Below, piece after piece: positions 15,454 through 41,710 of a stretch of 64,000 nucleotides of DNA (within the stretch, counting starts at the first letter, position 1; every line of letters starts with the position of its first letter). Origin of the DNA: a virus; the IMG/VR virus record IMGVR_UViG_3300035204_002571, positions 1 to 64,000 of that record, one strand, 5' to 3'. The position numbers were made by a program, and so were the translations under genes. Below the pieces are notes generated by a model. The model worked only from the letters and a program-made list of their open reading frames with translations, was not told the DNA's origin and searched no databases.

Positions 15454-16089
15454 ATGGCAAGTTATCCAAGCACAAAATCTATACTCGATAATCCAGATAA
15501 TGGCTCTAAGACAAGAACCGGTTTATCAACCCAGATTATCGTGTATGTTAATGGCGAACCTGTTGGCGCAATACAATCTTTTCAAGAGACCCAACAGAGA
15601 GCTAATAAGAGAATTTCAGAAGTAGGTACAGATGGTGTAATTGAAATCGTTCCTCAGTCACCAGCGCAGGTGACCATGACGGTTCAAAGAATTGTTTTCG
15701 ACGGTCTTTCTTTGCCGGAATCATTCTCAAGAGGGTTTAAGAACATTCATGCTCAAAGAATTCCTTTTGATATTATTGTTTTAGATAAGTTTACCGGCAC
15801 AGGTAATGATGCTGTAATGACGACTTATCACAACTGTTGGTTCAGCAATTTGTCAAAGACTTATCAGGTTTCTGATTATACTATCGTAGAGAATGCAAAT
15901 ATTGATGCAGAATTCGTATCCTCCTCAAGAGGCGGGCCCGAAAAGGCTGTTGCATTAAGTCAAGGCGTGGCTGGCTCTCGCGAGATAGCAGGAAGAGACA
16001 CGGACAGTGTCGAACAGGCTGCTGACGCAGGTGCATCAGGCAGACGAGGCGCTCTAGACTTCCCGGGGCTTATATCTGCAGCTTACTAA
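15454..16089 (+). CDS. Tail tube protein
   Basis: Follows the sheath; 'IIVYVNGEPVGAIQSF...EVGTDGVIEIVP...PFDIIVLDK...TYHNCWF...IVENANI' tube pattern. Confidence 0.88.
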   Translation: MASYPSTKSILDNPDNGSKTRTGLSTQIIVYVNGEPVGAIQSFQETQQRANKRISEVGTDGVIEIVPQSPAQVTMTVQRIVFDGLSLPESFSRGFKNIHAQRIPFDIIVLDKFTGTGNDAVMTTYHNCWFSNLSKTYQVSDYTIVENANIDAEFVSSSRGGPEKAVALSQGVAGSREIAGRDTDSVEQAADAGASGRRGALDFPGLISAAY

Positions 16090-19102: not shown

Positions 19103-20095
19103 ATGGATTTAATTCAAAGACAAACTATAATATTTTTTCTTCCAATTAGTATTGATGCCTTAACAGATGATCAGAGTCCATATACTGCGTCAAAAGATGG
19201 TAGTGCATTTTGGGATAAAAGACAGTTATATATAAACCCACAATCTATAAGCATTAGAGATGCAAAGCTTGTAAAGCCAGACCTCACAAAGGGAGGCTTC
19301 GTTGTTCAGTACTGGGGAGAGCAGCTTCCTGTTATGGAGGTGCAAGGGGTTACGGGTTCAGCAGGTATAGCTGGAATAAATGTTCTTAAAGATATTTATA
19401 GACATGAGCAAATTCAATATAGACAAGTTTTGGCAGATCGCCAAGCTGAGTTAGCTACAGCTGCATTAGCAGCGGCCGAAGCTGCAGCTTCAGAGTTATC
19501 ATCGCCATCAAATGTTGGCGAAAGCTTAACTCTTGCGGCAGATGTACTGACTGGCGGAGCTTTTTCAAGTGCAGTATCTGGCGTAAGTAACGCAATAGAT
19601 ATAATAACAGATCCGTTCTCTGGAGGTACAAGCTTTGGAGATACATATGGTGGTTCAGGAACATTTACAACGATTCCAACGCTTGCTTCGTTTGCTACAA
19701 ATGTAGACCTGTATCATCAAGGAGAATTTTTTAGAGGATTCTTTACAGGATTTAATGTTACTGAGACAGCAAATGAGCCTGGACATTTTAGTTATACTTT
19801 TTCTTTTACGGTAACCAGAAGGACGGGTAAGAGAGAGAACTTTATGCCATGGCATAGAGAGCCGACAGACGCTGCAGGAGAAACTATTATGAGTCAAAAG
19901 ACTACAGAGGAGAAAGGAGCTTATCCTGGAAATACTAATTTATCTTTTGAGACTGAAATTACAAGACGAGGCCAATTATTTGATGAACCAAATATAGGCT
20001 ATGTTAGCAGCGAATTCGTAGAGCCGATTGTAGACGTAGAAGACCTCTTAAATGAGACACCTGTAAGCAGAAGGAGTCAGGCTAAGGGTGAATAA
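19103..20095 (+). CDS. Tail tube initiator / baseplate tube-like protein
   Basis: 'LYINPQSISI...TKGGFVVQYWGE...VQGVTG' and 'FRGFFTGFNVTE...FSYTFSFTV'; position after the TMP. Confidence 0.75.
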   Translation: MDLIQRQTIIFFLPISIDALTDDQSPYTASKDGSAFWDKRQLYINPQSISIRDAKLVKPDLTKGGFVVQYWGEQLPVMEVQGVTGSAGIAGINVLKDIYRHEQIQYRQVLADRQAELATAALAAAEAAASELSSPSNVGESLTLAADVLTGGAFSSAVSGVSNAIDIITDPFSGGTSFGDTYGGSGTFTTIPTLASFATNVDLYHQGEFFRGFFTGFNVTETANEPGHFSYTFSFTVTRRTGKRENFMPWHREPTDAAGETIMSQKTTEEKGAYPGNTNLSFETEITRRGQLFDEPNIGYVSSEFVEPIVDVEDLLNETPVSRRSQAKGE

Positions 20096-25386: not shown

Positions 25387-27783
25387 ATGGCTACAGCAAC
25401 AAATCAAATACTGACCTTAGCAATCTATGAAGGCGATGTTGTAGATGTTAAGAGTGACGGAACAATGCTTTGCACAAGCTCTATTCAGGGGATGGATTCA
25501 CCCATAGAGGTGCCCGGTCTATATGGTGGATGCAGTGATGCAGGAATGTATTCTGGGCAGGGAGGCTCAGGTGTTCAGCCGGGAGACAAGGTGTTGTTAT
25601 GCAGGGTGCATCCCGGAAGTATGGGGGTAACACAGGCTCTTAGAGTTATTCCTGGGAAAAATAGAACAAAAAATACGAAAGAAGTTAGCCCTGGTCCCGG
25701 CCAGCCATCCGGAAGAACCAACTATCCAGTAAGAACATTAAAAGATGGAGACATTATGATCTCCGGCTCTGGCGGAGGCTTTCTTTCGCTGAGTGGAAAC
25801 ATCATAAAAAATGAAGTTTTTGTAGGGAATGTTTTAAAGAGCGGACTGTATGTGGGATGCTCTGGCAAAAAGACGGGTCTAGCAACAGTATCTCACACTA
25901 TTCAGAGTGCTAGCTCTGGGCACAGGCTTTACTGCGGAGATGTAAACAGGGTAGCTGGCGGTTCGAATGGTCCCGCAAGTACATCTGGTTCGGGGCATGA
26001 GATAGGGGCTGTATCGACAGAGACGGTCGGCAGGACAAAAGGTCTTTTGTCTGATTCGGACGCCGCAGAGACATCTTTTCTTGGAGGAGTAAGAAACCCT
26101 GCTATATCACAATATAGATTGGTTATAAATGAAGTTTCTGAACATAGTAAGTTTAAGGGTTGGGATTTAGAGGCCGTATTAAGGTCAAAGCCAGGGATTG
26201 GATCGTTTTCTGGATCGAAAGAAAATAGGGCTCTTGGGGCTGACAATGTACTGCATCTGCAGCCACATCAGTTGATTGAAATAATAGGTGGAAATGTTGT
26301 AAATAATAGCGGCGATATGTTAGATCCAAATTATGGAGTGCTGGATACTGGAGTTTCAGAAGAGTCTGAGGTTAGCTATGAGGAAGCTAGGCTCAATAGT
26401 AGGCGAGGAATTGGTTATCATTTTCAGATGTCTACAAACTCTTTGTCAACAGAAACATCAAATGATGTAAATAATTTTGTTTACGCCATTGACAAAGAAG
26501 GATCTTTGAAAGTTAGCGTTCCAAGGTCTTCTAAGACTGGAAATATTCTATATCCAACTAGTGCCAACTTTTATGATGAGGGCGGCACAGTAAGTTCTGG
26601 GCCAGATAGTCAAGGGATAAATCCTGAAGAGAAAATACCTGTTTTATTAAGAACAAAGGGCAATGAGGCTGCTTTACCCCCGTCAACTGTAGTGACAACA
26701 TCTCCAAGTCAAAGGGCTGTTACAGATACTGCTAGAAAAACTGGAATTAGATTTAAAAATGATAACAATTATTTTCAGGGAGTTAGAGAGGTTATTGGTG
26801 GAGACGGCAAGAATGTTAGAATAAATCCAACGAAATATCATAATATGTATGCTGCGGCTGAAATGTTAATTGCAAATATGGCAGACGGCATCATGGTTCC
26901 AACGGATACATCTGAATGCCCAGGCATAGAGATGGGCAACTCTATAGGCGAACCTTTCGAAAGATATTCAGTAAGCAATGATGGTGATGGAACAGATTCA
27001 AATACCGAGACAAAATTCATGACAGTTATAAAGGTTGCACCAGGTCAGCCTGCCATAGACACTGGAGGCGGAGTAATAGTTGCAGGGACAGATGGGTCTG
27101 CAAGCACAGTGCAAGGAGATGATGATGCTAGAATCAATGTTCCTTATGCAAATGCTTTTACGGTAGGATCAGAGGGCGGAACCGACCTGGAGGAGGGTGC
27201 GAAAAGTCCAGGAGGTAAAAGTGCCAATATAAACTTTGAAGGCTCCATAGAAATGTCGGTAGGAAAAGACGATAACGATCAGAAAAGTATACTTCTAGAT
27301 ACCGCCGGAGCCTTGGTGGCATGGTTTGGAAAAGATAAGAATGATAGAAGCTTAATAGTTCAAACAGATGGAGGGGTTCTTTTGAATGTGGGAGGAGTAA
27401 ATGGAGATGTTTTTAACAAAGGAAGGCTCGATCTAAGGGTTAACGTGACTAACAAGGGGTGGCTTGGAGATGACGACTTTACGCCTCAAGGCGGACCACA
27501 TGCTTCGGATTATTTGATATCAATAAGTGAAAATGGATTGGTAATAGCAGGCATGAAGCCAGACACTCCAATGATAATAAGAAATGATGGAAATTTATCT
27601 ATTGAAAGTACGGCCAAGTTAATTCTAGCAGGACAATCGGTAGAGATGAGAGAGGGGAATCGACCTCCAAGCAAAACGCATAAAGCTCCGGTCTCTCAAG
27701 ATCAAGAGACTCCAACTGCAGAGTCAGTGGCAGATGACGTTGGGTGTCTTATAACGCTTCTTAGTGAAATAACTGGTGATTAA
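25387..27783 (+). CDS. Central spike protein (gp5/gpV-like; OB-fold plus beta-strand repeats, 798 aa)
   Basis: N-terminal OB-like 'EGDVVDV...QPGDKVLL'; C-terminal short beta repeats (SILLDTAG, SLIVQTDG, LISISENG, IIRNDGNLSIES); follows the hub. Confidence 0.65.
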   Translation: MATATNQILTLAIYEGDVVDVKSDGTMLCTSSIQGMDSPIEVPGLYGGCSDAGMYSGQGGSGVQPGDKVLLCRVHPGSMGVTQALRVIPGKNRTKNTKEVSPGPGQPSGRTNYPVRTLKDGDIMISGSGGGFLSLSGNIIKNEVFVGNVLKSGLYVGCSGKKTGLATVSHTIQSASSGHRLYCGDVNRVAGGSNGPASTSGSGHEIGAVSTETVGRTKGLLSDSDAAETSFLGGVRNPAISQYRLVINEVSEHSKFKGWDLEAVLRSKPGIGSFSGSKENRALGADNVLHLQPHQLIEIIGGNVVNNSGDMLDPNYGVLDTGVSEESEVSYEEARLNSRRGIGYHFQMSTNSLSTETSNDVNNFVYAIDKEGSLKVSVPRSSKTGNILYPTSANFYDEGGTVSSGPDSQGINPEEKIPVLLRTKGNEAALPPSTVVTTSPSQRAVTDTARKTGIRFKNDNNYFQGVREVIGGDGKNVRINPTKYHNMYAAAEMLIANMADGIMVPTDTSECPGIEMGNSIGEPFERYSVSNDGDGTDSNTETKFMTVIKVAPGQPAIDTGGGVIVAGTDGSASTVQGDDDARINVPYANAFTVGSEGGTDLEEGAKSPGGKSANINFEGSIEMSVGKDDNDQKSILLDTAGALVAWFGKDKNDRSLIVQTDGGVLLNVGGVNGDVFNKGRLDLRVNVTNKGWLGDDDFTPQGGPHASDYLISISENGLVIAGMKPDTPMIIRNDGNLSIESTAKLILAGQSVEMREGNRPPSKTHKAPVSQDQETPTAESVADDVGCLITLLSEITGD

Positions 27784-27891: not shown

Positions 27892-30800
27892 ATGGCAAGT
27901 AGTTCAGATTATACAGGCATATTGCCGCCTATTGTTGGCAGCATAGTCACCGAAGAAGAATACTCTACTATATATGTAAATTGTAATCCCGAGGCTCAGG
28001 GGTCAAGCACTGCTACGTCTGGAAGAAGCACTCTTGAAAGTCCAGAGTTAGGCGTTATATTTCCTGATAAAGCCAAGACTGATACGGTAGTCCCTCTTAT
28101 AGGCGGCTCCATCGTTACCTTGAAGCTTAATAATGCAGAATTTAACACCTCTAGAGGTAAAAGCGATAATAATGATAAAAATCTAACGAAATATAGAACT
28201 AGAAATTTAAACAAAAAAATAAAAAAAATTCCAGGCATAAGTGCTGCCTCTACAGGGGAGGGCTCAGAGTCTACAGAGGAGAGTACAGCGGCTGAATTTG
28301 TTGAAATTTCCAATCTTGTAGATGCAAGGCTAGAGATAAACAAGGCCTTGTCATCAATGCCTTCTCTCTCTCAGCAGTGGTATAATGCCGGAATCCCAAG
28401 TCTTGTCCTTTCTAGGTTTAAGTCTACAACAATTGATAATGCAGCAGATTTACAAAAAGAGATAGATAAAAAGGCAAAAGACAAGATAAGACTCTCTGGC
28501 TTAAGACCTATCGGAACACTGAAATTTATACCTATAGAAGTTTTGAAAACAATATTGGATATTTTGGCCAATACGGAAAAGGAAGACTTTGGGTTGGCCA
28601 ACTATATTGGTATATCTGGAATAACATTTGCAGAGTTGGCAAAGTATTTAGATGGCTATAAAGAGGACGGCAGAACGTATAGCGGTCTTGGCACAGGGTC
28701 GGACCAGGAAGATAAGTTAATACAGATTTTATTGGAAATATTTCCAATTTTTCACATAGACGAAGACTACATTGATGGAGAAGATGTAAAGGCTGACATA
28801 GGGTATTTTACAGCACATGATGATACGCTTTATGTAAAGATGCCAGACCTGTCTGGCAGGGATAGCTCAGGTTACTCTTCAAACCTATATGGCATCGAAG
28901 AGGATGATGCTGATGAGCATATAACCTTTTGTTTTGAAATGGCAAAGTTTACAGAGTATTCTGCAGTAGCCTTTGATCACGTAGCTCCACCGGTTCTTAC
29001 CTTATCAAGTGGAGACGAAGAATACCCGACCGATGAAAGTGATATCGCCATAACAGTAGAGAAAGAAGGATTGGATCCAGAATCTGGGATTAGTTATTAC
29101 TTGTCTCCTATTGTAGATACTAAAGCTTCGACAAAGGTCAGAGGTTTCAAGGAGTCTTCTGATGCAGTTGAAATGTTTACAGCTCCTGTTCTTACGAAGC
29201 CTTATCTAAAGGATACTAAGCCGATAATTTCTGTCGAAGATGCTTCTTCTGAGTTTGTAGAGATATATGAAAAATTACTAAAACATCTTCAGGATGACGT
29301 TAGTGTGTTCAATCCAGATGATATGGAGAGAAACTCTCTCATATATAATGATGAAAGACTTGTTTTGAGCCCAGAAGCTAATCATTTTGTTTTTGAAGAT
29401 TTAGGATTGCCATTAACCGTGTCTCTGTCAGACGTAGGAATAAGTAATTTATCAGAATTATTAGGAGAGTTAAATCGCCCTGAGATTTTGCTAGGAATGC
29501 GAGGATCAGAGTCTTCGAATGATAAAAGTGATGAAAAGTTTTTTAAGCCAAAAACAGCTTCTGCAAGAGATATTATGGCATCAAATAGGCCGAATATTAT
29601 CCTGGATATTGACGAACAGATTCCTTCTAATTGGATAAAGTTATCTTCTCCAAAGTCTGCAGAAGAAGATGATGAATGGGAATTGGAGATTCCTTATAAA
29701 TCAAAGGCAACGAATGAAGGGACTACGGATGCCGGGTTGGATATTTATAATGATGCGGCCACAGTTGAGTTCGTTCTTTATGCTGTAGATGAATATGGAC
29801 AGATAGTTAGAGCTCCAGGGCAAAATGTAAAAATAAGACCAAAATCATCCATGGTGACGATACTTGACCCCAATGGGTTTGGAAGAAATAATGCCATTAA
29901 CCTATCAGACCCATTGGGGTCAGCCTCTGTTACTGGAGAGGGGCTAGAAGGAATTACAGTTGCAACCTTTTCCTCTGATGAGTTAGGAGAGAATATAGTT
30001 GCAACCCTAGAGGACGGTGTAGATGGGGTTACTATAAAGAGTACTTCAGATAGTTCTGTAAAAATAAAATCAGATGAAACAGTTGCATCCATTGTTGGTG
30101 CTGCGGTTGGCACGTTTTTTATGAGACTTGTATCCTCAAACGGAATATCTTCAAACCCGAAGGCTATTTATGTTTCAGAAGATGGAACCCGTGACGGCCC
30201 GGATGAAGAGGCTGCAAAAATAACTTTTGATGATCCGTTTGGCTTTTCTGTTAAAAAGTTTGGAAAGGCCGTTCACTCTATACCTATAATAATGGATGGC
30301 ACAAATAGTGCAAGTATAACTTTAGAGTATAAGAAAAAAATCTTTACAAGCGATAGCGCTACTCTTTATGCATATATAGCCGTAAGTGATAATGATAATA
30401 ATTTAGCCATCTTAAAAGAGGACGTTGGATGGACCGAGGAAGACGGAGAAGAAAAGGCTCCAATTAAAAAGATATCTATAGAAACAGAGAAATCAACAAG
30501 CAATTTTTATATCCCAACAGCTTTGGAATATGAATTTGGATCATCTGATTTTGAAAGAAAGAATAAACGAAAAGCCGTATTAAAGTTTCTTGGGAGCACC
30601 GGACAGTTTCTTAATCTTAGCAGATTCACTGAGCTTGAGGCTCCGGCCAGTGGTTCGGCATCCAACGAGTATCCTGCCTATATTCTGTTAACAAATAATA
30701 AGTTGAGCGACACATCTGTTAGCACATTAGATACCAAAGGTAATGAGTATGCCGTTATCCCTATAGGGTCCTCTTCGGATGATGATAAATCTTATTCTCC

Positions 30801-33800
30801 GTTTATTTCCGCACCGCATGTTTTGGGACTTGTAACACAAGTTGATGGAAACTCTGGCTCTATGTCTATAGAGTCAAGCATTAGCCGTGAGGCTCTAACC
30901 GCATCGACTAATGAGTTGGATAAAAAGATTAGGCGACTAGATGTTACAAAGATAAAGTCGGGCAAGGAGCAAAACTATAGACTGGTTGCATGCGATAGCT
31001 TGACTAGGCTGGCGGTAGTATTTCGCGGCCCAGATGAGCCAAAGCTGAAAAAGCTTTATAGCGCAAAGCTTGGAACTAAATCTTTAAAGGGTTATAAAGC
31101 CGGCAATGTTAAGTATGCTGGAGATAATTTGCTTGTTGTAAATTATAAAAGCATAAGTGATGTAACCGATGAGGGCTGGGTTGATATAACTATAACAAAA
31201 AAGGATAAAAGGTTTAACGTTACATATGATTCAACCTTATATAATAGGACTACGGTTACATTCTCTGATAGTTCTGAGATATCAGAAGGTTCTTTCACGG
31301 TTGAGGCAAGCGAGGATACAAACGTATTATTATCTGGAGAAGACAGAATAATACCTTTGGTAGAAGACGGAGAGAGTACATCTAAATTTGTTGATTCGCT
31401 TGGGAATGAAAATGCATCTTCAGTTATATTTCCAATGGGGAAAGGCACTCCTCCCTTTTCTCCGTTTCCATTGATACCTGCGGAAAGTTATAAAGATAGT
31501 GCAACTAATTCGGAAGCTTATTTTCTATTTAGCAATCCGATTAAAGTGTATCCCAGTGTGGATCTTGTGTTTGGAGCTATAGACAATAGCATTGTTTATG
31601 GTATGGCCCTGTCCGACTCACCTGTAGACGAAAATGGAAAACCTGGTGTTGAAGTAATAAGCATAAGTACAAGCGGAAATACTTCGGTAGCGATGAGTCT
31701 GGAAGACATAAAGGGAGCTCTGGAAGCTATGGGGGCAGAGGCCGCTGCGGCTCTTGATGCCGCTAAGCAGGGTGCTGAAGATATAGCCGGAGAGGTAACA
31801 GACTTAAAGAAGACTCTAGAAACTACAGAAAATGAGGATGAAAGGGCTGCTCTAGAGAGCCAAATCGCGGACAAAGAAGAAGAGGCTGCTGCAATCAATC
31901 AAACGATAGATGAGTATGAGGCAAACGAGGAAGCAGCTGCGGCTGCTCTTGCAGAGGCAGAGCAGCAAGCCTTAGATGCTAGTTCTGCTGGCTCTGTAGA
32001 CGTTGCAGGCGGCTTTGCAGAGGGCGTCGATGCCGTCACAGAGGGCGTCGATGCCGTTATGGGGGCTGTGGGTGACGCATTGGGTGCGTTGAACGATGCC
32101 CTGTCTCTATTGCAGACGATATCTGACACATTGTCAAGCTTGGCAAATATGGCAAATCAAATTGCTGATGCGGCAGAAGCAGGGTTGGCGTCTGTTTCGA
32201 ATAGACCTTCTGATTTTATCAAGGTAAATATTAAACATGTTTATATAGATAAAGATGCAAATATATCAAATTCTTATGTTTCTATAAAATCAGACCAAAC
32301 AGTGGGCAAATTAGTTGTTTCTACGAAGTTTACGCAAGTAGCTGCAATCAGATTTAATGTTCCAGAAATTATTGAGCTTAGAGTTAAGGACAAAAGCAGC
32401 GAGCCCTACAGGCTCACTCCTCCAAGGCAATTTTCATCTGCAGTGATAAACAGTGGCGACAAGCTTTTTCTTAAGACGATTTGTGCAACGCCAAATACAA
32501 AGGTTGAAATTGGCGGTTTTAGAGTAAAGACCAATAAGGGCAGCCCATTTGAGGAGGGGGAGTATAGAAACTTTGTAACAACAGTTCCAGACTTGAGTCA
32601 GTTTTCATTATTTGGCAGCAGTGATTGTTTGAAGATCACAATGACCAATTCTAATGAAAATAGAATGAGGCTTGTAAGTGTGTCTGGAAACGATATTGCC
32701 TTAAATCTAGATAAGAAGTGGGGCAAAAATATACTTGGAGGAAAGAGAAATAAGTCAGGCCCAGCCACAGATCTTCAAGATGCTCTTGGTGACTTTTATT
32801 TAAGATTTACATCCGTTAAGCTGGAGAAGGCAAACATTGCAAAAGAGTTTTTGCAAAGCTTCTGCGATATGTCGTTCCACTTGACTGCAGAACTATCACT
32901 TCAGCTTAGAAACTTTAAAGTTCTTCTTGTGCCTATTAAGGTCATCTTCTGCATTATTGACGTTATATGTGCCCTTCTTCATCCAATAAGGCTTGTTTTC
33001 GCTATAATTAGATTATTCTTATGCCTATATGATTTGATATTATTATTGCCACAGCTGTCTGTTCCTGCTATGTATTTGGCAATATTGCTTCATATTCTTG
33101 AGTTACTGCTTTGCGTCATCCTGAAGATACTCGGAATTCTAAATGCTATAAACGAAATTATTGCTGCTCTTGAAGTTGCTATAGAGCAGAAGAATTATGC
33201 TTCTATAATGGCCCTTGAGGAAACCTTGAACGAACACTTGTTCAGCCTTGAGGCCGACCTGTCTGTTCTGGAGCCGATTTTAACAATTCTGGCCCTATTC
33301 CTTGAGCTGTTAGGCTTGTTGTTCGCATTTCCTTGTCAGATAGGGGCTGACGAAGATGACGATGCCTGTATTGATCCATCACAACTTGCAGGCTTAATCA
33401 TAGGAAAGGTGGCTCCATTTGGGCGAATAGAGCCCGACGCCTTGCTTCCATTGGCTCAGACTTATACAACACTACCTGTTGATGAGGTCGGAACAAAGGG
33501 TAACACGCCTCCGGAGTCTGCTGACGATGGGGGTACCGTAGAAACAAGTACTGGAACTAATCCTACCAATATCCTGAAAGAGGTTATCGAGTATGGTGGC
33601 GGAAACGTTACAACAGGTGCAGATTACGAAGGAAATACTCTTCCTGGCCTTGTTGATAATATGACGGGTGAAAACAAAACTGTAGAAGAGGGAGGCTTTT
33701 TCTCAGGAGATACAACCGATAGTGGACAGATAGATAATGTTAACTATCAGAATTTACGTTTTAATGAATTTGAGACAGATCAACCAGGGTTTAATGGAAC

Positions 33801-35886
33801 ATTCTCATTATCATTCACTAAGAGTGTAAAAGAATTTGCAATTTTCACAGGGCCAGATCCAAGGATGGTTAGATTTAAGTTTAAAGAAAAGGGCTTAACA
33901 AATGCTTTAGCGTTTATTCCATTTTGGTTTATTTCTATATTCTTTAGAAAGAAGACTATAGATAACCTGCAAACTATGGACTCTCCCCCTGGATTTTTAA
34001 TCCCCAACTCTTCAGGCACAGGTCTTAAAATAGCCGAAACCGGAGATGACATAGGCTTAACAAGCCCTATAGATGGAGAGACCGGAATCTTCTTGGAGAC
34101 AAATGATGGCGGAGCGTCTTATCAGCCTCTTCCGTTGACTGCAACAATAGAATTACAGGAGCCAGGGGTCGACGAGGATACCAACTTGGCCGTTTTTACT
34201 CCCACAACTGTTACAAAGACATTTGGCAACATTCCTATGATAGCTTTAGTTGATGATCAGTTTAATGTATATTTTGTTGAAGAGACAGATGACGGAGGAG
34301 GGATAGTTGTAGAAGATATTGATGGAGTTCCATGCATTACGTCTATTCATGCCAAGATGATCAATCATCCTTCTGCTCCCAAGAAAAAATTTGCAAGAGA
34401 AGATAGAGAGGTTTACAGAGGCAAGGACGATATGCCGGCAAAAAGCGACAGAGCAACCAGCATGTCGGATAGCCCCATTCCTGCTGGTCAAAAGATTATT
34501 TATGAGCAAGCAAATGCAAATTGGGCATTGGGAATTGACGAAGTTATTGAGTCCTATACAACGGATCCATCGGGCAACTATGGCGGCCCCTTTACTAAGT
34601 ATGATGATTTTAATAGTGAAGCAGGAGGCTTTCCTGATGCTCAGACATATTTAGATGACTATGTTGTCGACATCCTGGCGGCAGCCGACCCAGGAGAACC
34701 TCCTTTTCCAGACTATGGTGTATATGATTGGTCAAATGGATCTAAAAAAGAGTTAAAAGATCTTGGAAACTCTATAGATACAGTTAAGGTCTTTGACTTT
34801 CCAAATCTCTACATTGTTGATGTTAGGCAGGTAGCTGACGATATTGCGGCAGCCTGTGGAGCCTCCGGTCCAATGGAACTTCTGCTTGACCTTCCGGGGT
34901 TTGAGAATCCAGATGAGCTTGAAGATAGCATTAAAAGAATGAAGGAATGTACAGAGGAGTTTATAAAGCACTTTAAGGATACAGAGGAAGACGAGGATGG
35001 TATTCCTAAGGGTGTTGCACCACGGATTAAGTACAAGTTGGCCAACGGAATGATTCCGGACAAAACCTCAATACCAGATGCTATTGGGAAGTTTAGAGAT
35101 TTACAGAAATGTTGCGAAGACGAGATAGACGTTATGTGCAAGTTTGTTATAAACCCGCTTAATACATCTTTCAAATTATTGAATGATGATGACGAAACGC
35201 CATTAACAGACTATATAAATCCGGAGCAGAAAGAGCTTAAAGACTTAATTAAATATGATATAATTGATGAATTAGATACAGAAGGAGAGCTTGAAGGTTT
35301 CCCCACGATTACAGGCGCAATGGAATATGCGTCAGGAATTGGTGACCTTGCAGTTGTAGAGGTTGGAGAAAAAGCTCTTATTAAGATTATTCCAAGAGAT
35401 TGTTATGATGAGCCCCTGCATGCAACCCTAGATCTTACAGAGAAGATTAAGATAGATTTCTTAGAGGACGAAACAGGTTCCGCTGAGTTGGTTGAGGTTA
35501 CAGAGGGCAGCGGCGAATTGATAGAGAAGGATGATACAGAATACTCCTTGGCGATAAGCGCTAAAACGAAAGGGAAAGTGGTTATAAAGGCTACGGTTTG
35601 CTCTATGGTAATACAAGCGGTTACAGATAGGGGAATATTAGGTGGGTCATCAGATGAGACAGATGGAGTAGATTGTATAGATGATGTTGAGACAGAGGAT
35701 TCAGATGGTGATGATATTTTTGCTCCAGGATCACTAATGAAAGTAGACAGAACTCTTACAATCTTGTTTGTCCCCGCCGCTGCAGACGGCCCAGGTGCAG
35801 GAAGATATGGTGATGCAGATAGGGAGGAGAGCGCTCGCTCGGCTAAGCCAGGGCCGCAGAAATTTGGTACAAAACTGGAGAATTAA
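27892..35886 (+). CDS. Giant virion-associated protein (2664 aa): Ig-like domains, Ala/Glu coiled coil and long hydrophobic helical block
   Basis: IPT/TIG-like segment near 29850-30175; coiled coil near 31690-32190; hydrophobic block 32914-33336; filamin/Big-like segment near 35353-35605. Confidence 0.6.
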   Translation: MASSSDYTGILPPIVGSIVTEEEYSTIYVNCNPEAQGSSTATSGRSTLESPELGVIFPDKAKTDTVVPLIGGSIVTLKLNNAEFNTSRGKSDNNDKNLTKYRTRNLNKKIKKIPGISAASTGEGSESTEESTAAEFVEISNLVDARLEINKALSSMPSLSQQWYNAGIPSLVLSRFKSTTIDNAADLQKEIDKKAKDKIRLSGLRPIGTLKFIPIEVLKTILDILANTEKEDFGLANYIGISGITFAELAKYLDGYKEDGRTYSGLGTGSDQEDKLIQILLEIFPIFHIDEDYIDGEDVKADIGYFTAHDDTLYVKMPDLSGRDSSGYSSNLYGIEEDDADEHITFCFEMAKFTEYSAVAFDHVAPPVLTLSSGDEEYPTDESDIAITVEKEGLDPESGISYYLSPIVDTKASTKVRGFKESSDAVEMFTAPVLTKPYLKDTKPIISVEDASSEFVEIYEKLLKHLQDDVSVFNPDDMERNSLIYNDERLVLSPEANHFVFEDLGLPLTVSLSDVGISNLSELLGELNRPEILLGMRGSESSNDKSDEKFFKPKTASARDIMASNRPNIILDIDEQIPSNWIKLSSPKSAEEDDEWELEIPYKSKATNEGTTDAGLDIYNDAATVEFVLYAVDEYGQIVRAPGQNVKIRPKSSMVTILDPNGFGRNNAINLSDPLGSASVTGEGLEGITVATFSSDELGENIVATLEDGVDGVTIKSTSDSSVKIKSDETVASIVGAAVGTFFMRLVSSNGISSNPKAIYVSEDGTRDGPDEEAAKITFDDPFGFSVKKFGKAVHSIPIIMDGTNSASITLEYKKKIFTSDSATLYAYIAVSDNDNNLAILKEDVGWTEEDGEEKAPIKKISIETEKSTSNFYIPTALEYEFGSSDFERKNKRKAVLKFLGSTGQFLNLSRFTELEAPASGSASNEYPAYILLTNNKLSDTSVSTLDTKGNEYAVIPIGSSSDDDKSYSPFISAPHVLGLVTQVDGNSGSMSIESSISREALTASTNELDKKIRRLDVTKIKSGKEQNYRLVACDSLTRLAVVFRGPDEPKLKKLYSAKLGTKSLKGYKAGNVKYAGDNLLVVNYKSISDVTDEGWVDITITKKDKRFNVTYDSTLYNRTTVTFSDSSEISEGSFTVEASEDTNVLLSGEDRIIPLVEDGESTSKFVDSLGNENASSVIFPMGKGTPPFSPFPLIPAESYKDSATNSEAYFLFSNPIKVYPSVDLVFGAIDNSIVYGMALSDSPVDENGKPGVEVISISTSGNTSVAMSLEDIKGALEAMGAEAAAALDAAKQGAEDIAGEVTDLKKTLETTENEDERAALESQIADKEEEAAAINQTIDEYEANEEAAAAALAEAEQQALDASSAGSVDVAGGFAEGVDAVTEGVDAVMGAVGDALGALNDALSLLQTISDTLSSLANMANQIADAAEAGLASVSNRPSDFIKVNIKHVYIDKDANISNSYVSIKSDQTVGKLVVSTKFTQVAAIRFNVPEIIELRVKDKSSEPYRLTPPRQFSSAVINSGDKLFLKTICATPNTKVEIGGFRVKTNKGSPFEEGEYRNFVTTVPDLSQFSLFGSSDCLKITMTNSNENRMRLVSVSGNDIALNLDKKWGKNILGGKRNKSGPATDLQDALGDFYLRFTSVKLEKANIAKEFLQSFCDMSFHLTAELSLQLRNFKVLLVPIKVIFCIIDVICALLHPIRLVFAIIRLFLCLYDLILLLPQLSVPAMYLAILLHILELLLCVILKILGILNAINEIIAALEVAIEQKNYASIMALEETLNEHLFSLEADLSVLEPILTILALFLELLGLLFAFPCQIGADEDDDACIDPSQLAGLIIGKVAPFGRIEPDALLPLAQTYTTLPVDEVGTKGNTPPESADDGGTVETSTGTNPTNILKEVIEYGGGNVTTGADYEGNTLPGLVDNMTGENKTVEEGGFFSGDTTDSGQIDNVNYQNLRFNEFETDQPGFNGTFSLSFTKSVKEFAIFTGPDPRMVRFKFKEKGLTNALAFIPFWFISIFFRKKTIDNLQTMDSPPGFLIPNSSGTGLKIAETGDDIGLTSPIDGETGIFLETNDGGASYQPLPLTATIELQEPGVDEDTNLAVFTPTTVTKTFGNIPMIALVDDQFNVYFVEETDDGGGIVVEDIDGVPCITSIHAKMINHPSAPKKKFAREDREVYRGKDDMPAKSDRATSMSDSPIPAGQKIIYEQANANWALGIDEVIESYTTDPSGNYGGPFTKYDDFNSEAGGFPDAQTYLDDYVVDILAAADPGEPPFPDYGVYDWSNGSKKELKDLGNSIDTVKVFDFPNLYIVDVRQVADDIAAACGASGPMELLLDLPGFENPDELEDSIKRMKECTEEFIKHFKDTEEDEDGIPKGVAPRIKYKLANGMIPDKTSIPDAIGKFRDLQKCCEDEIDVMCKFVINPLNTSFKLLNDDDETPLTDYINPEQKELKDLIKYDIIDELDTEGELEGFPTITGAMEYASGIGDLAVVEVGEKALIKIIPRDCYDEPLHATLDLTEKIKIDFLEDETGSAELVEVTEGSGELIEKDDTEYSLAISAKTKGKVVIKATVCSMVIQAVTDRGILGGSSDETDGVDCIDDVETEDSDGDDIFAPGSLMKVDRTLTILFVPAAADGPGAGRYGDADREESARSAKPGPQKFGTKLEN
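32018..32057 (+). repeat. 21-bp tandem duplication (EGVDAVT heptad x2)
   Basis: CAGAGGGCGTCGATGCCGT repeated at 32018 and 32039. Confidence 0.9.
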
Positions 35887-35889
35887 TAT

Positions 35890-37893
35890 ATGATTGAAAT
35901 ATCGGAATTGCTTACAAGCTACGAAAAGACAAAAGAGGGCAAAGATGGTGTTCCTCCGGATCATTTGAAAACTGCATTTGACGCAGCCATAACGTCTTTG
36001 ACCACAGGCTTTGGGGTTACAGACCTCCATGGTGCTCTCGGTCAAGGCGCAGGAGGTCTATCAGATGAATATGCCAAAATGTTTGAAGGAGTTGCGGAAA
36101 ATTTTAGTACTCTTTTTGCAGAGCTGAACAAGATGAGATCGTCTTATCTTCCGATAGAGTTGATCGAAGGATTGGATAGTGAGGGGGTTCCCAAAACTAT
36201 AGAGGAAGTTGTAGATACACAGTCTATTCTGGAATCGTATGAAAACACATTCTTTAGAATGCTTGGGATGCCATCAACAGCAGATCTCGACGATAATATG
36301 AAATTAACAACTGTCGATGAGACTGGAAAATATGTTAGTGATCAATTCAAGAGTAAGTACGAACCTATATTAGACAAGAGGCAAATAAAAAGATCAGAAA
36401 GACCAGGCGCTCCAACCAATAGTATTTATGATTTTGTATCTGGCTCACAAAGCGCAATACAGCTGCTAGAGAGTGAGGGGTTTACAAAGTCTGAAGAATT
36501 AAAGGCTGTTTTGGCTTCGTTAAAGTTTTTATATGATGCGGATGAGTATGATGCAGCAGGAGTTTCTACGTTAACAGGTCTTATAGGAAACATTGGAGAT
36601 GAAACGGTTGGCTCTACATACTCTGATCTGATAACGGCAGATCTTGAAACATACAAGAAAGGATATGCTTCTGAGGATGGCGAGGAAGCCACGGCATCTC
36701 CTGAGCTTATACAGGTAGCTATATTTAGTATATTAAAAAATTCTTTAATGCATATAGATCCAACTCGAACATATTCTATAAGTACACTGAATTCGTTATT
36801 TAATGAGTTTATAACTTTAAAGCCGGATGTAAACCTTATGCATCTGAATAAAGCTGAGGTTTTTTGGGAATTTTCACATTTATTATTTCCGCCTGTTCAA
36901 GATGGCAGGATAGCAAAATGTATTAATGAGCCAGCGAAGATGGTTGCAGAGCCGTTTACTCCAAACATTTTAAGAACTATAAATGGTCACAAGATGAAGT
37001 CAACGTTGCTGGAGGCGGTTATAAGGATAAGGTTGGATATAATTAGCGGCACGCAAATTGCATCTCCCAATACAGAGCCTGGATCTGTCCGTCCCCCGAT
37101 TACTGCAGGAAATTTTTCAGTACCAGTATCTCATGAGTCTGTTATAGAAAGAATGGGACTTATAGAGTCTTTGATTATAGTGAGATTGTTTACAGCGGTT
37201 CAAGGATTTGCTTTTGATGTTTATAACAGAATAGGAGATATGGTAAGCCTTCAGCATCAAAATGGCAATGTTCCTGGAGGCGAGATGGCTGAGGACAATC
37301 AGGCTACGGCTATTGAAAAAAAGAAATTTTGCGAAACAAACGACCAAAGATGTCAGTTAGAATCTATGAAGCTTATTGAAGACTCTATGTTATTGATATT
37401 GGGAGATAGCGATGTCCCTGAGGTGCTGGACATGCAGGTTGGAGTGGCCCGAAGCTCCGGAATGAAGAATGCACACCTGATGAGCGCTGTTTTGTCAATT
37501 ATGGACGTACCAAGAAGGTTTGTTGAGAGTCGGCTGGCATCTTTGGATGAAGAGCAGGAGCGAGCAGCAGAGAAGGCTGGTGATGCTGCAAGGTCTGCTG
37601 TTGCAAATAAAATTGGAATCTCAAAGGGAGTTGGAGCAATTGATGTTTTGGCTTTTCTGATAGCACTTTTTACAATGAAGGAGAGCGAGCTTTTATGCTT
37701 GCTTACTCCAGAGCAGTTTGAAAATCTTGAGGCAGAATATCCAGATGGATTTTTCAGCAGCTTTACGAGAGAATTGACTATAGATAATGCAGTAAATAGG
37801 GTTACAGATAGGGCTTATGATGCTTATCAGTTATTTAGGCACGCTCTAAGTAAACAAGGAGGCTCCAATACCGTACCTGTTTCTACAGAATGA
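35890..37893 (+). CDS. Hypothetical alpha-helical baseplate-region protein (667 aa)
   Basis: Long ORF between the giant gene and the gp25-like gene; hydrophobic 'GVGAIDVLAFLIALFTM' near the C-terminus. Confidence 0.6.
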   Translation: MIEISELLTSYEKTKEGKDGVPPDHLKTAFDAAITSLTTGFGVTDLHGALGQGAGGLSDEYAKMFEGVAENFSTLFAELNKMRSSYLPIELIEGLDSEGVPKTIEEVVDTQSILESYENTFFRMLGMPSTADLDDNMKLTTVDETGKYVSDQFKSKYEPILDKRQIKRSERPGAPTNSIYDFVSGSQSAIQLLESEGFTKSEELKAVLASLKFLYDADEYDAAGVSTLTGLIGNIGDETVGSTYSDLITADLETYKKGYASEDGEEATASPELIQVAIFSILKNSLMHIDPTRTYSISTLNSLFNEFITLKPDVNLMHLNKAEVFWEFSHLLFPPVQDGRIAKCINEPAKMVAEPFTPNILRTINGHKMKSTLLEAVIRIRLDIISGTQIASPNTEPGSVRPPITAGNFSVPVSHESVIERMGLIESLIIVRLFTAVQGFAFDVYNRIGDMVSLQHQNGNVPGGEMAEDNQATAIEKKKFCETNDQRCQLESMKLIEDSMLLILGDSDVPEVLDMQVGVARSSGMKNAHLMSAVLSIMDVPRRFVESRLASLDEEQERAAEKAGDAARSAVANKIGISKGVGAIDVLAFLIALFTMKESELLCLLTPEQFENLEAEYPDGFFSSFTRELTIDNAVNRVTDRAYDAYQLFRHALSKQGGSNTVPVSTE

Positions 37894-37946: not shown

Positions 37947-38378
37947 ATGTCTTTCGATTTAACCTTGGAAAGAGGTGATATCAAAATAAGTGCAGATGGA
38001 ACCATTGATACGGTTAGTGGCAATTCAAAGTTGCGACAAGATATTATAAAAATATTATTAACCGAGATTGGTGATAATAGGTTTCATCCGAAATATGGAA
38101 GTTATATTGGCGCTTTACAGATAGGTCATTATGCTGATGGAAAGTTGGTGTCTTTAGATCTTGAGGGGTCTGCCAGAAAGGCTATCAGGAACCTTATGGC
38201 ACTTCAGAGAGCACAGGGTAAGAGGCAAAAATTAACGCCGGGAGAGATTATTATAGATATATTGAAAGTTTCAGTTTCTAGAGACGAAGTTGATCCCAGA
38301 CTTTATAATATATTTGTTTCTGTATTGACGAAGAGAATGACAGAAGTTAGAAGCAACGTTACAGTAAGAATAGCTTAG
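37947..38378 (+). CDS. Baseplate wedge/sheath initiator (T4 gp25/P2 gpW-like)
   Basis: 'KLRQDIIKILLTEIGDNRFHPKYGS...DPRLYNIFVSV' gp25-family signature. Confidence 0.88.
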   Translation: MSFDLTLERGDIKISADGTIDTVSGNSKLRQDIIKILLTEIGDNRFHPKYGSYIGALQIGHYADGKLVSLDLEGSARKAIRNLMALQRAQGKRQKLTPGEIIIDILKVSVSRDEVDPRLYNIFVSVLTKRMTEVRSNVTVRIA

Positions 38379-38386
38379 GAGAGAAG

Positions 38387-41300
38387 ATGGCAAGATTTAG
38401 ATCATTTAGTGAGATTGTTTCTACGATGATAGATAGACTGAAACTTTCTCAGCCAAATCTTGATACAAAACCCGGAACTGTTTCTAGGGATTTGTTTGTA
38501 GATTTGCCTGCAGATCAAATAGCAAGGCTGTATTCTTCAATAAACTTGGTGTCAGAAAAGCAATCTCTGGCAACGACTGTAGGAAGAGACTTGGATCGAT
38601 TAGCTTCAAACTTTGGAACCTCAAGAAATACTGGATCATCCGCAAGTGGAATTGTTGTATTTTGCACAAATAGCTTAATGACAGATATATCTATTCCAAC
38701 CGGAACCGTTGTTACTTCGAAAAATGGATCAAAATTTAAAACAATTGGAAACTTTGTAATGTCTTCTGCTGATAAAAATAGATTGGCAGCAAATGCCAAT
38801 CGTATACGGCGTGCGCTGAATATTGCCGGAATCAGCAGCTCATATGCTTTGGAGGTGCCTGTTCAGTCTGTTCGTCCTGGAACTACAGGGAATGTAGGAT
38901 CTCTACAAATAATTAATACAGATCTTGCTTTTCCGGTTTCTGTAACAAATCTGACAGCAATGGTCGGAGGAGCCAACAAGGAGACAGATAACTCTTTTAG
39001 ATCTAGAATTTTGTCTGTTTTTAGCGGAGCAAATATAGGGACATCCTCTGGATATAGAAACTCTATTCTTGGGGTCAATGGTGTGCTTGATGCATTGGTA
39101 GTAGAGCCGGGAAGTTCATTAATGTTAAGAGATGGCACAGAGACGATAGAGACGGGTGACGGGTCAGATAGAATTATAAGCTCTGGAACAGGTGGCAAGG
39201 TAGATATATATGTATTAGGAAGAAAGGTTCAAGAGGTATCTGAATCTTTTATCTTTACAGACTTATCTGGTTCTGGAAATATTTCTGATGAAAGAAATGA
39301 CTATACCTTGGGGCAGGCCGGCCAGGACCCGACCAGAACATCTGAGGAAAGAAGGGTTTTGGCATTTAAAAATGGATCACTACCAGTGCAACCTGTTGAT
39401 TCAATGGTTTCTGTGACCGGCAGCTCTTCGGGTCTTTTTACAGAGTCTTACGAAGATAGCGACGGAGTTGTCTATGGAAACTTTGAGCTGGAAAAGGATT
39501 TAAATCCGGAAACTGGAGGCAGTCCGTTTGGTTTTGACAAAATACATTTTATATCTAATACGAAGATCGTAGAAGGAGAAGGGCTCACGAAGATTGGATC
39601 TTTTAGCTCAGAAGCCCTTTCTTTTAATGATATCAATGAAATAAATCAAGTATATAGAGATATCAATGAAACAGGAGAGAATTCTGAAGTGAGTTCTGCA
39701 GGGAATGAGTTTATAAGTTTAATACACACCCCTATAATTAGAGTTAGTCAGGTTCAAAATAAGACAACTGGAGAGGTATATTCGGTTGTAGATCAAAATC
39801 TGGATTCAGATGGATTAAATACTTCTGGAGTGATAGAGATTTCAGGAAGATCTCTTCCTACTGCTGCAGATATCTTAAGTGTAAATTATACATGGAGGCA
39901 GGTATATGATCCATATGTAGACTACGCCGGATCATCAAGCTTATCCCAGTTTAGAGACTCATCTTTGACTGATTCTATAGACTGGTCCTCTACCGGTGGG
40001 ATTTTCGAAGAAGAGTCCGTAGTAACAAAATCAGAAGATGATTTGATGTTTCAAGTAAAGCTTGCTTATGACATCTCCAAGGTTATCTCTGTATATAAAA
40101 GAGAAGAGGTTGAGTCAACAATTAGCGTGGTTGACACGTCAGGCACAACGGACTTAGTCGGGATTGAGCTTGACTCTGCAGATGAGGCTATAGACAATAT
40201 AGTGTCTATTCGAAGAGCTAGTGATAATTTGGAGCTTTATAATACATTAGCAGCAGATGGAACGTTTGACGCAAGAATTATATATTTGCCATCCGATTCC
40301 GTAGGGTCTATTGATGATGAAGTTGTTGTTTATTATAATAAGGTAGAATTATTTGATATAAACAAAACAGATGGATCATTCTACAATAACGTTGTGGCCC
40401 TACCATCCGAGGGGGTGTTGGACGCAGAAGAGGTTTTTGACACAGTTGAAGACCTGTATTTATCTGGAGATGAAGTTTATGCAACTTATGTTGCAGATAT
40501 AAGCATTGTGCATCCAAGCACAAGCTTGAGCAATCTTCCAATCACAGGAGGAGAGGCTTCGAATACTCTTCTTGGATTAGAGGGTTCTGGGTCTTCTACG
40601 AATCAACCAGTATTTTTCGAATATGATTCAGGGGGAGATCCTCATTCTATTATCAAATTCGGGCCGGCTAATTTGGATATTAAAGTATCGGGAATTTCTA
40701 AACCAGGCAAGATAAAGGTTTCTGGAGTAACTCTGAATAGATATACTGTAGATGTAACTGCCGGGACAGCAATGAGTGGATTTGTGTTTGATATAGAATC
40801 TGAGTTAAAAACAGCATTAGATCTAACCTCTATACCTAGCAATATGGGGATAGCGAGGGTGGATAAGGTATGTTTGCTAGATTCTTATGGTGAAATAGAT
40901 AAAGAGTTTAATATTCTTGGATACTATCTAAATGACATAACATATGATATAGGCTCTGCTCAAGCTGATTCAGACCTAGATAATTCTCACTTTACTTTGC
41001 CATCTACTTCAACTAATAGCGCTATATCTATTAGTTCTGGAGATACGATAAGGGTAGAGCTGCTAGTATATAATACAGAGGGTTATGAAGAATTATATTA
41101 TTCCTCCTCTGAGCTAAGAACTACGAGCAATAGGTTTGCCAGAATCGATAGGGTTTCTGTGTCGTCTGGTTTTAGGTCTGTAACTGGGAACCTAATAGGA
41201 AGTGTTGAGATAATGATGTCAAGCCAGCCGAAGTCTGGCTCTACGTATTATGTTGATTATGACTTTTTGGCGCCAAAAGAGGGCGAGAGAATAACTGTAT

Positions 41301-41710
41301 CTTACAATGTTAACAAACTTATAGCTGACGCTACAGTCGAAATAGAGAGAGTTAGGCCTGTTACCGCAGATATTCTTGTGAAAGAAGCAGAAGACCTAAC
41401 GGTTGACGTAGAGGGCATGCTTCTTATAAATGAAGAAGCCTTGGGAGAGGCAGATAAGATTGTGGAGAATGTAATAAATTCTGTTACGAATATAATAAAT
41501 ACATCAAGCCTTGGTTCTATTGTAGACTATTCAGATATAATAGCCGTAGCCGCTGGAGAGAGCGGGGTAGATTCAGTTAATATTTCCCTATTTAATGAGT
41601 CTGGCAAGACTGGAAGAAAAGCTTTTATAAAGGCATTAGACAATCAAACGATATCTCCTGGAACGGTTATATTCGAAGCAACATCTAGAAATAAATTTAG
41701 AATCAATTAG
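38387..41710 (+). CDS. Baseplate J-like wedge protein with large central insertion (1107 aa)
   Basis: 'LDRLASNFGTSR...ASGIVVF...IPTGTVV', 'GTTGNV', 'GGANKETDNSFRSRI', 'GKVDIYV'; C-terminal 'RPVTADILVK...SDIIAVAAGESGVDSV'. Confidence 0.9.
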   Translation: MARFRSFSEIVSTMIDRLKLSQPNLDTKPGTVSRDLFVDLPADQIARLYSSINLVSEKQSLATTVGRDLDRLASNFGTSRNTGSSASGIVVFCTNSLMTDISIPTGTVVTSKNGSKFKTIGNFVMSSADKNRLAANANRIRRALNIAGISSSYALEVPVQSVRPGTTGNVGSLQIINTDLAFPVSVTNLTAMVGGANKETDNSFRSRILSVFSGANIGTSSGYRNSILGVNGVLDALVVEPGSSLMLRDGTETIETGDGSDRIISSGTGGKVDIYVLGRKVQEVSESFIFTDLSGSGNISDERNDYTLGQAGQDPTRTSEERRVLAFKNGSLPVQPVDSMVSVTGSSSGLFTESYEDSDGVVYGNFELEKDLNPETGGSPFGFDKIHFISNTKIVEGEGLTKIGSFSSEALSFNDINEINQVYRDINETGENSEVSSAGNEFISLIHTPIIRVSQVQNKTTGEVYSVVDQNLDSDGLNTSGVIEISGRSLPTAADILSVNYTWRQVYDPYVDYAGSSSLSQFRDSSLTDSIDWSSTGGIFEEESVVTKSEDDLMFQVKLAYDISKVISVYKREEVESTISVVDTSGTTDLVGIELDSADEAIDNIVSIRRASDNLELYNTLAADGTFDARIIYLPSDSVGSIDDEVVVYYNKVELFDINKTDGSFYNNVVALPSEGVLDAEEVFDTVEDLYLSGDEVYATYVADISIVHPSTSLSNLPITGGEASNTLLGLEGSGSSTNQPVFFEYDSGGDPHSIIKFGPANLDIKVSGISKPGKIKVSGVTLNRYTVDVTAGTAMSGFVFDIESELKTALDLTSIPSNMGIARVDKVCLLDSYGEIDKEFNILGYYLNDITYDIGSAQADSDLDNSHFTLPSTSTNSAISISSGDTIRVELLVYNTEGYEELYYSSSELRTTSNRFARIDRVSVSSGFRSVTGNLIGSVEIMMSSQPKSGSTYYVDYDFLAPKEGERITVSYNVNKLIADATVEIERVRPVTADILVKEAEDLTVDVEGMLLINEEALGEADKIVENVINSVTNIINTSSLGSIVDYSDIIAVAAGESGVDSVNISLFNESGKTGRKAFIKALDNQTISPGTVIFEATSRNKFRIN

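Follow-up and report, generated by a model that had tools for sequence, protein, structure and literature searches.

A conserved hydrophobic helical module in a predicted baseplate protein of huge contractile-tailed phages

The window analysed here, positions 1 to 64,000 of IMG/VR virus record IMGVR_UViG_3300035204_002571 (64,000 nucleotides), is a single-strand run of very large phage structural genes. One of these encodes an acidic tail/baseplate protein of 2664 amino acids (aa) that carries a conserved block of hydrophobic helices; the phage from which it derives is an uncultured marine jumbo phage. The block recurs in the same baseplate gene slot in hundreds of huge phages. The module around it (aa 1621–1837) would, in our tentative estimate, which stops slightly short of an even chance, be the core of a previously undescribed family of baseplate-core proteins of huge contractile-tailed phages. 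Because the helices are membrane-grade, extremely conserved and encoded in the hub/baseplate part of the tail genes, a membrane-insertion role at entry is the best available reading of the block.

Results

Hydrophobic helices of the 2664-aa protein

The net charge of the protein is −197, and beta structure predominates outside the helical module. No hydrophobic signal-like stretch was found at its N-terminus. An earlier reading made from the DNA letters (the sequence-only reading) had described a very acidic protein without signal peptide, in which an Ala/Glu coiled coil at about 31690–32190 and a beta-rich spacer precede some 140 aa of hydrophobic helices with regularly placed Cys and Pro; each of these elements was recovered, at the positions given below.

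27892–35886, + strand: whole gene of the acidic tail/baseplate protein (2664 aa) that bears the module; the frame is open throughout.
27892–32751, + strand: lineage-specific N-terminal extension (aa 1–1620), including the coiled coil and beta domains; absent from orthologues of about 700 aa, identity to the query 11–49%.
31693–32211, + strand: Ala/Glu-rich coiled-coil region (aa 1268–1440), from composition and from predicted helices at aa 1270–1435.
32278–32646, + strand: Ig-like, beta-rich spacer domain (aa 1463–1585), from predicted strands.
32752–33402, + strand: conserved core module (aa 1621–1837), common to the short orthologues; from profile alignment (hhalign), profile search and structure prediction.
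32911–33348, + strand: hydrophobic helical block (aa 1674–1819), from Kyte-Doolittle 19-aa windows.
32914–32982, + strand: helix 1 (aa 1675–1697), with the motif C-I-I-[DE]-V-[IL]-C and the invariant C1693.
32983–33048, + strand: helix 2 (aa 1698–1719), N-terminal half basic (conserved R/K1707 and C1711), C-terminal half hydrophobic.
33049–33186, + strand: helix 3, long (aa 1720–1765), first half membrane-grade, second half an amphipathic heptad; present in the predicted model.
33196–33330, + strand: helix 4 (aa 1769–1791, amphipathic) and helix 5 (aa 1794–1813), from the predicted model.
33331–33369, + strand: Pro-Cys...Cys cap (P1814, C1815, C1826) that closes the module, from conservation.
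33403–35886, + strand: C-terminal part (aa 1838–2664), moderately conserved (identity to the query 20–65%), with an invariant C-terminal tail.

Hydropathy was assessed as the Kyte-Doolittle (KD) mean over 19-aa windows (KD19) and as a predicted insertion energy on a Hessa-type scale, the values of which are position-independent. The KD19 of the block reached a maximum of 2.7, in helix 1. The predicted insertion energy was zero or lower in three 19-aa windows (aa 1701–1719, 1726–1744 and 1795–1813), with −1.1 at aa 1726–1744 in helix 3, and the median window of the 2664-aa protein was at +20. Helices 1–3 have a mean KD of 1.9–2.3 and a low hydrophobic moment, and a polar face is absent from them. 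The block is the sole membrane-grade stretch among the 17 large tail-module open reading frames (ORFs) of the window (∼17,000 aa); second to it comes only the gene downstream, with modest segments of KD19 1.68–1.93. We regard the block as more than a chance feature because it is uniquely hydrophobic among these ORFs and is the best conserved part of its protein family.

Conservation among giant homologues

With aa 1250–1850 as the query, 70 giant homologues were collected (P0002–P0071), all metagenomic, of about 1500–3000 aa (most >2000 aa) and from contigs of up to 348 kb. One of them (P0003, 70% identity in the queried region) has been deposited as part of a bin named 'Candidatus Pacearchaeota archaeon'; most probably a phage contig has ended up there among archaeal sequence. 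In an alignment of 53 giants, identity to the query was 70–82% over aa 1651–1850 versus 11–58% elsewhere; this contrast is perhaps somewhat inflated since the query itself contained the block, but it is still large inside the queried region. The block was thus the best conserved part in the homologues, as the sequence-only reading had proposed to check, and conservation was extreme at almost every one of its positions. The coiled coil was the least conserved region (14–23% identity to the query) and was reduced to 12–70 aa in distant giants.

The residues that are invariant in the giant family include seven cysteines (1658, 1687, 1693, 1711, 1741, 1815 and 1826) and five prolines (1698, 1720, 1725, 1795 and 1814), together with D1690, R1707, D1714 and H1734.

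A family of shorter orthologues

A profile of the block only was scored against 1.8 billion representative proteins and yielded 227 cluster representatives. Besides the giants, these comprised a large group of 620–850-aa proteins (approximate lengths) that bear the block near the N-terminus, at about residues 60–250 (the short family, P0121–P0204), and a few intermediates of about 1500–1630 aa. Alignment of the giant and short families with hhalign gave a probability of 99.8% and an E value of 2e-27, and was confined to aa 1621–1837 of the former and aa 33–249 of the latter. The short family is encoded by 122 IMG/VR stretches (confirmed by tblastn) on contigs of up to 480 kb, 80 of which were kept as loci; the IMG/VR loci of this study are numbered L001–L096. 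The same gene order, together with homology that is limited to the block, identifies the ∼700-aa proteins as positional orthologues and the block as the conserved core. What has been added to that core in particular lineages is the N-terminal part of 1650 aa, with the coiled coil in it; the window protein belongs to the marine giant branch of the block family.

In the short family, the median of the maximum KD19 of the block protein was 3.36 (51 loci), with values up to 3.68 and ∼29 consecutive residues that are almost purely hydrophobic. In the same 51 loci only a single upstream ORF reached a KD19 of 1.9, where it should be considered that the 10-kb flanks may not always contain the tape measure gene.

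The anatomy of the module was compared over 83 sequences from both families. Helix 1 follows the pattern C-I-I-[DE]-V-[IL]-C-A-L-x-N-P, in which C1687 and the acidic residue at 1690 are nearly invariant and C1693 is invariant. It is followed by a basic amphipathic stretch with a conserved [RK]-L-F-x-C. Residues 1715–1743 are hydrophobic at most positions and contain the invariant P1720; most core positions of helix 3 are at least 95% hydrophobic. Residues 1746–1811 are amphipathic with a heptad-like pattern, helix 5 being membrane-grade in the giants and amphipathic in the wider family. C1815 is present in 83/83 sequences and C1826 in at least 90%. The charges within the helices are conserved across both families ([DE]1690, [RK]1707 and largely [DE]1714), and so are the cysteines. 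The full signature, C-I-I-[DE]-V-[IL]-C...N-P...[RK]-L-F-x-C...P...P-C, is invariant or nearly so in both branches. The predicted family-wide anatomy is therefore one of about two membrane-grade segments with a basic linker between them, then an amphipathic hairpin and the Cys cap.

Predicted structure and fold comparison

The structure of aa 1250–1900 was predicted with AlphaFold2 (AF2) from 30 sequences, at a predicted local distance difference test score (pLDDT) of 66.5. The model consists of helices at aa 1270–1435, a beta domain at aa 1463–1585 (pLDDT about 75–88) and the helical block. The coiled-coil region is modelled as four long helices with pLDDT values up to 94. A second model, of aa 1640–1860 and based on the 83 sequences of both families, reached a pLDDT of 80 and shows helical hairpins, with helices at aa 1657–1696, 1698–1717, 1720–1765, 1769–1791, 1794–1810 and 1829–1840.

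Foldseek gave nothing significant for either model; for the block, including the comparison with pore-forming proteins that the sequence-only reading had suggested, the best E value was about 2. The spacer gave weak rows to beta sandwiches of the IPT/TIG and NEAT types. When the block model was compared with 48,161 chains using VIA-align, only generic antiparallel hairpins were returned (Z ≤9.8), among them IpaB with a Z of 8.8 and a root-mean-square deviation (rmsd) of 7.2. The best row for the coiled coil was the N-terminal domain of SipB (3tul_A; Z 10.8, rmsd 3.1, 133 aligned residues), tied with BAR domains. The noise level of VIA-align for helical proteins is ∼13, and all rows obtained here lie below it.

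Sequence searches

Scans of the 2664-aa protein against Pfam (E ≤0.1) and PHROG returned zero families. Among 18 family members, Pfam gave TIG/Ig matches, two of these homologues matching IPT/TIG, and apart from these one weak match to OmpH. In the short orthologues, weak matches to Ig domains of the invasin/intimin kind were seen in the C-terminal part. The sequence-only reading had placed Ig-like adhesion domains on both sides of the block, which these data support in part: a beta domain is predicted upstream, two homologues match IPT/TIG, and the C-terminal match, seen with short orthologues, is weak. Searches of PDB sequences with four family profiles gave nothing significant; the best rows for the block were transmembrane helices of RND efflux pumps (E 0.055), which were read as compositional. 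Among 32 short-family members, weak PHROG matches were almost exclusively to four tape measure families, i.e. phrog_4200 (4 members), phrog_305 (4), phrog_5493 (2) and phrog_1272 (2), with a best E of 1.6e-4.

No match was obtained in 50,697 cultured/deposited phage records when the target and two short orthologues were used as tblastn queries, and searches of the literature on jumbo/huge phages brought up no description of such a protein.

Gene neighbourhood

The gene lies in a contractile-tail module, the other members of which are listed here.

12149–15439, + strand: sheath.
15454–16089, + strand: tube-like protein.
17132–19099, + strand: probable tape measure protein (655 aa) at the canonical position, with a weak match to TMP_3 and typical composition.
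19103–20095, + strand: 330-aa gene after the tape measure gene; its orthologues match the tail tube initiator weakly.
Between the 330-aa and 798-aa genes: 1747-aa protein.
25387–27783, + strand: 798-aa gene directly upstream of the target, putative central spike by its conserved position and motif pattern, with homologues in both clades.
35890–37893, + strand: 667-aa gene downstream of the target, with one moderately hydrophobic helix near the C-terminus (KD19 1.93 at aa 575–593).
37947–38378, + strand: gp25-like sheath initiator (phrog_2669, E 2.4e-13).
38387–41710, + strand: gp6/gpJ-like wedge protein (phrog_6, E 3.2e-42; Baseplate_J, E 1.3e-21).

The slot of the target is defined by a putative spike gene of ∼700–800 aa directly upstream and the gp25-like gene two genes downstream. 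It was seen in the window, in the giant loci L005 and L015 and in the short loci L019 and L045. The order in L045 is 596 aa, 318 aa, 1687 aa, 698 aa, the block protein (729 aa), 620 aa, a gp25-like protein (155 aa) and a gpJ-like protein (1364 aa); L019 has the same order. The protein between the block gene and the gp25-like gene is roughly 540–620 aa in the short loci. The neighbours in the window and in the short-family loci are pairwise homologous, except for the gene at the tape measure position and the downstream 667-aa gene. The latter gave no BLASTP match to its short-family counterpart, although the sequences can be aligned, and the counterpart has a comparable Gly-x-Gly...Asp...Ala-Leu segment with a KD19 of 1.9–2.2. 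The block protein may have the 667-aa product as its partner.

The putative spike of 798 aa has neither a family match nor a PDB match. Phospholipase A2 was considered for this gene (E 0.064, aa 49–124) and judged a chance match, no catalytic-type motif being visible. The 655-aa tape measure protein has a maximum KD19 of 1.49, in a Gly-rich segment. Homologues of the 330-aa gene (L045, 1803–2759; L019, 1412–2299) weakly match PF23980, with E values of 0.002–0.008 that are below the cut-off. By the gpJ-like protein, the nearest cultured relative is Bacillus phage G; an equivalent of the block was sought there and rejected, as a hydrophobic segment is absent from all of gp183–gp189.

Two further observations concern the borders of the module. 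Upstream of the sheath gene, the C-terminal 470 aa of a 1722-aa ORF (1677–6845) match tail fibre families (phrog_9942, E 1.8e-22). Directly after the tail module, ∼25 consecutive ORFs of 160–400 aa run on the same strand from 56327 to the end of the single contig of this genome (81920), and at least 6 of these match the glycosyltransferase family phrog_2170.

Discussion

Possible function of the block

The explanation that we favour, and that falls just short of probable in our judgement, is that of a dedicated baseplate-core protein, the hairpin of which would be shielded in the virion and would insert into the host inner membrane after contraction. In the virion, the hairpin (helices 1–3) would be kept from water by oligomerisation or by a cavity of the hub/tube, and the conserved cysteines may lock it via disulfides or metal. 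Contraction of the sheath and loss of the spike would expose the hairpin at the tip of the tube, from where it would enter the host cytoplasmic membrane and form or anchor a conduit for the DNA; the single-helix product of the next gene may take part. In T4 and P2 it is the tape measure protein whose transmembrane segment has been proposed to do this job. The 1650-aa N-terminal extension is probably exposed on the baseplate in the marine lineage. In a stronger version, huge contractile phages would make their inner-membrane DNA channel from a Cys-locked, dual-state baseplate hairpin instead of the tape measure protein, perhaps with help from the neighbouring single-helix protein; this is conceivable, and we regard it with appreciable doubt. 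The sequence-only reading had likewise suggested a tail-delivered, membrane-inserting channel or anchor for genome entry. Of that suggestion, the membrane-grade, conserved helices and the hub/baseplate locus stand, and they are what makes an entry function plausible; the argument from secretion translocators and pore-forming toxins fell away.

Several observations weigh against a membrane role at entry. Over the whole family only about two segments are membrane-grade, helix 5 being amphipathic and helix 2 half basic. A protein with large beta domains cannot pass the tail tube in a folded state. The Gly-rich segment of the 655-aa tape measure protein (KD19 1.49) could still serve as its own membrane segment. 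Homology to T4 gp29 was undetected (hhalign with the 83-sequence alignment; probability 0.5%, E 0.13), and no homology to any pore former was found in Pfam, PDB-sequence or fold searches. Finally, the very high conservation fits a tightly packed, permanently buried core equally well. This last point leads to a purely structural explanation, in which the helices are the buried core of a homo-oligomeric bundle (3- or 6-fold) that joins the hub to the wedges, stays in the baseplate throughout and never meets a membrane. Conservation at nearly every position is what tight protein-protein packing would produce, the heptad-like amphipathic helices (the second half of helix 3, termed 3b, and helices 4 and 5) suit an oligomeric coiled coil, the cysteines could be structural, and AF2 packs the hairpins with good scores. 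Helices 1–3, however, have no polar face, and the short family has runs of ∼29 nearly pure hydrophobic residues, which are typical of membrane spans but unusual for a soluble assembly. Acid-base pairs that are both buried and conserved are likewise found more typically in membrane or dual-state proteins. We consider the structural explanation rather unlikely.

The membrane-grade segments would also fit a role in the producer cell, where the block would tether the nascent hub/baseplate to the inner membrane during assembly, or position it for release, and would have no part in entry. The basic stretch between the hydrophobic segments agrees with the positive-inside rule for insertion by Sec/YidC. 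Such an anchor is highly improbable in our view: a signal peptide is absent, and in the giants the first span comes only after an acidic N-terminal domain of 1650 aa. Conservation tends to be low in simple anchors, but no part of this protein is better conserved than the block. To become part of a virion, the protein would first have to come out of the membrane again. Another possibility concerns the origin of the block, and is compatible with insertion after contraction: the block could be distantly homologous to the hydrophobic region that tape measure proteins carry, and have moved to a separate gene. The nearly exclusive matches of the short family to the four tape measure PHROGs point in this direction, as does the tape measure protein of the window, which is without a comparably hydrophobic segment. 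The matches are weak, though, and composition alone might account for them; none was obtained for the target, and the hhalign comparison with T4 gp29 is negative. We regard a displaced tape measure module as a distinctly unlikely origin. True kinship with the major translocators of type III secretion systems (T3SS) or with alpha pore-forming toxins is effectively refuted as membership. VIA-align ranked SipB first for the coiled coil and listed IpaB for the block, but BAR domains, trypanosome receptors and designed bundles scored equally well, all within the noise; sequence searches gave no match, the family does not conserve the coiled coil, and the context is that of a phage tail.

If the stronger version, with a dedicated translocon, is true, hundreds of phages of 200–480 kb would share a new family of membrane-penetration proteins, defined by the block. 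Recent work on T4 and P2 points to the tape measure protein for the passage of DNA across the cytoplasmic membrane by contractile-tailed phages, and in a large clade of uncultured huge phages the only helices that are strongly membrane-grade appear to reside in a separate, very conserved protein of the baseplate slot. As an entry channel, the block would be a marker gene for this clade and a likely target of superinfection-exclusion proteins, and the compact module of ∼220 aa, or the natural ∼700-aa proteins, would be suited to expression and testing. If the block is a buried structural core instead, it would be an unusual case of a membrane-like sequence inside a soluble assembly.

Comparison with known systems

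The sequence-only reading had equated a coiled coil plus hydrophobic hairpins with the architecture of T3SS translocators and alpha pore-forming toxins. The likeness to the major translocators SipB and IpaB lies in an antiparallel intramolecular coiled coil that is followed by hydrophobic hairpins, and in delivery by a needle-like machine. This equation did not hold: no region is less conserved than the coiled coil, which is absent from the ∼700-aa orthologues and thus dispensable in the family, and the similarity in fold is generic. Neither translocators nor colicins nor ClyA showed a sequence match. The neighbours of the target are phage genes (sheath, tape measure, gp25-like and gpJ-like).

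Other phages form a channel across the envelope with ejection or pilot proteins (T7 gp14/15/16, phiX174 H and T5 pb2). These are carried in the virion, have hydrophobic helices and are believed to exit the particle and to span host membranes for the passage of DNA. The virion types and gene positions of these ejection or pilot proteins differ from those of the target, and PHROG and PDB sequence searches revealed no similarity to them.

The T4 tape measure protein gp29 has been divided into four parts, namely a coiled coil, a transmembrane segment predicted at aa 207–246, a helical-bundle domain in which this segment is sheltered and a loop at the C-terminus, and it has been proposed to form a conduit through the inner membrane (bioRxiv 10.64898/2026.03.06.709160); such a conduit has likewise been proposed for the tape measure protein of P2 (bioRxiv 10.64898/2026.09.14.750843). 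The target is not itself a tape measure protein, as the window encodes a classical one of 655 aa and most of the target is beta-rich. The 655-aa protein fills the canonical slot, and the target is encoded four genes further on, after the putative spike. The target also differs from gp29 in having several hydrophobic helices with fixed Cys, Pro, Asp and Arg. The two sides have the following in common: the proteins are tail-borne, a signal peptide is absent, and membrane-grade helices stand beside amphipathic ones (3b–5 in the target), with a KD19 of 2.2 for the transmembrane segment of gp29 versus 2.7 for the target. By analogy, and not by membership, the closest counterpart of the block is the transmembrane/helical-bundle region of these tape measure proteins (TMP_TM/TMP_HBD of T4 gp29; P2 gpT), shielding in the virion and a conduit after contraction being proposed for both.

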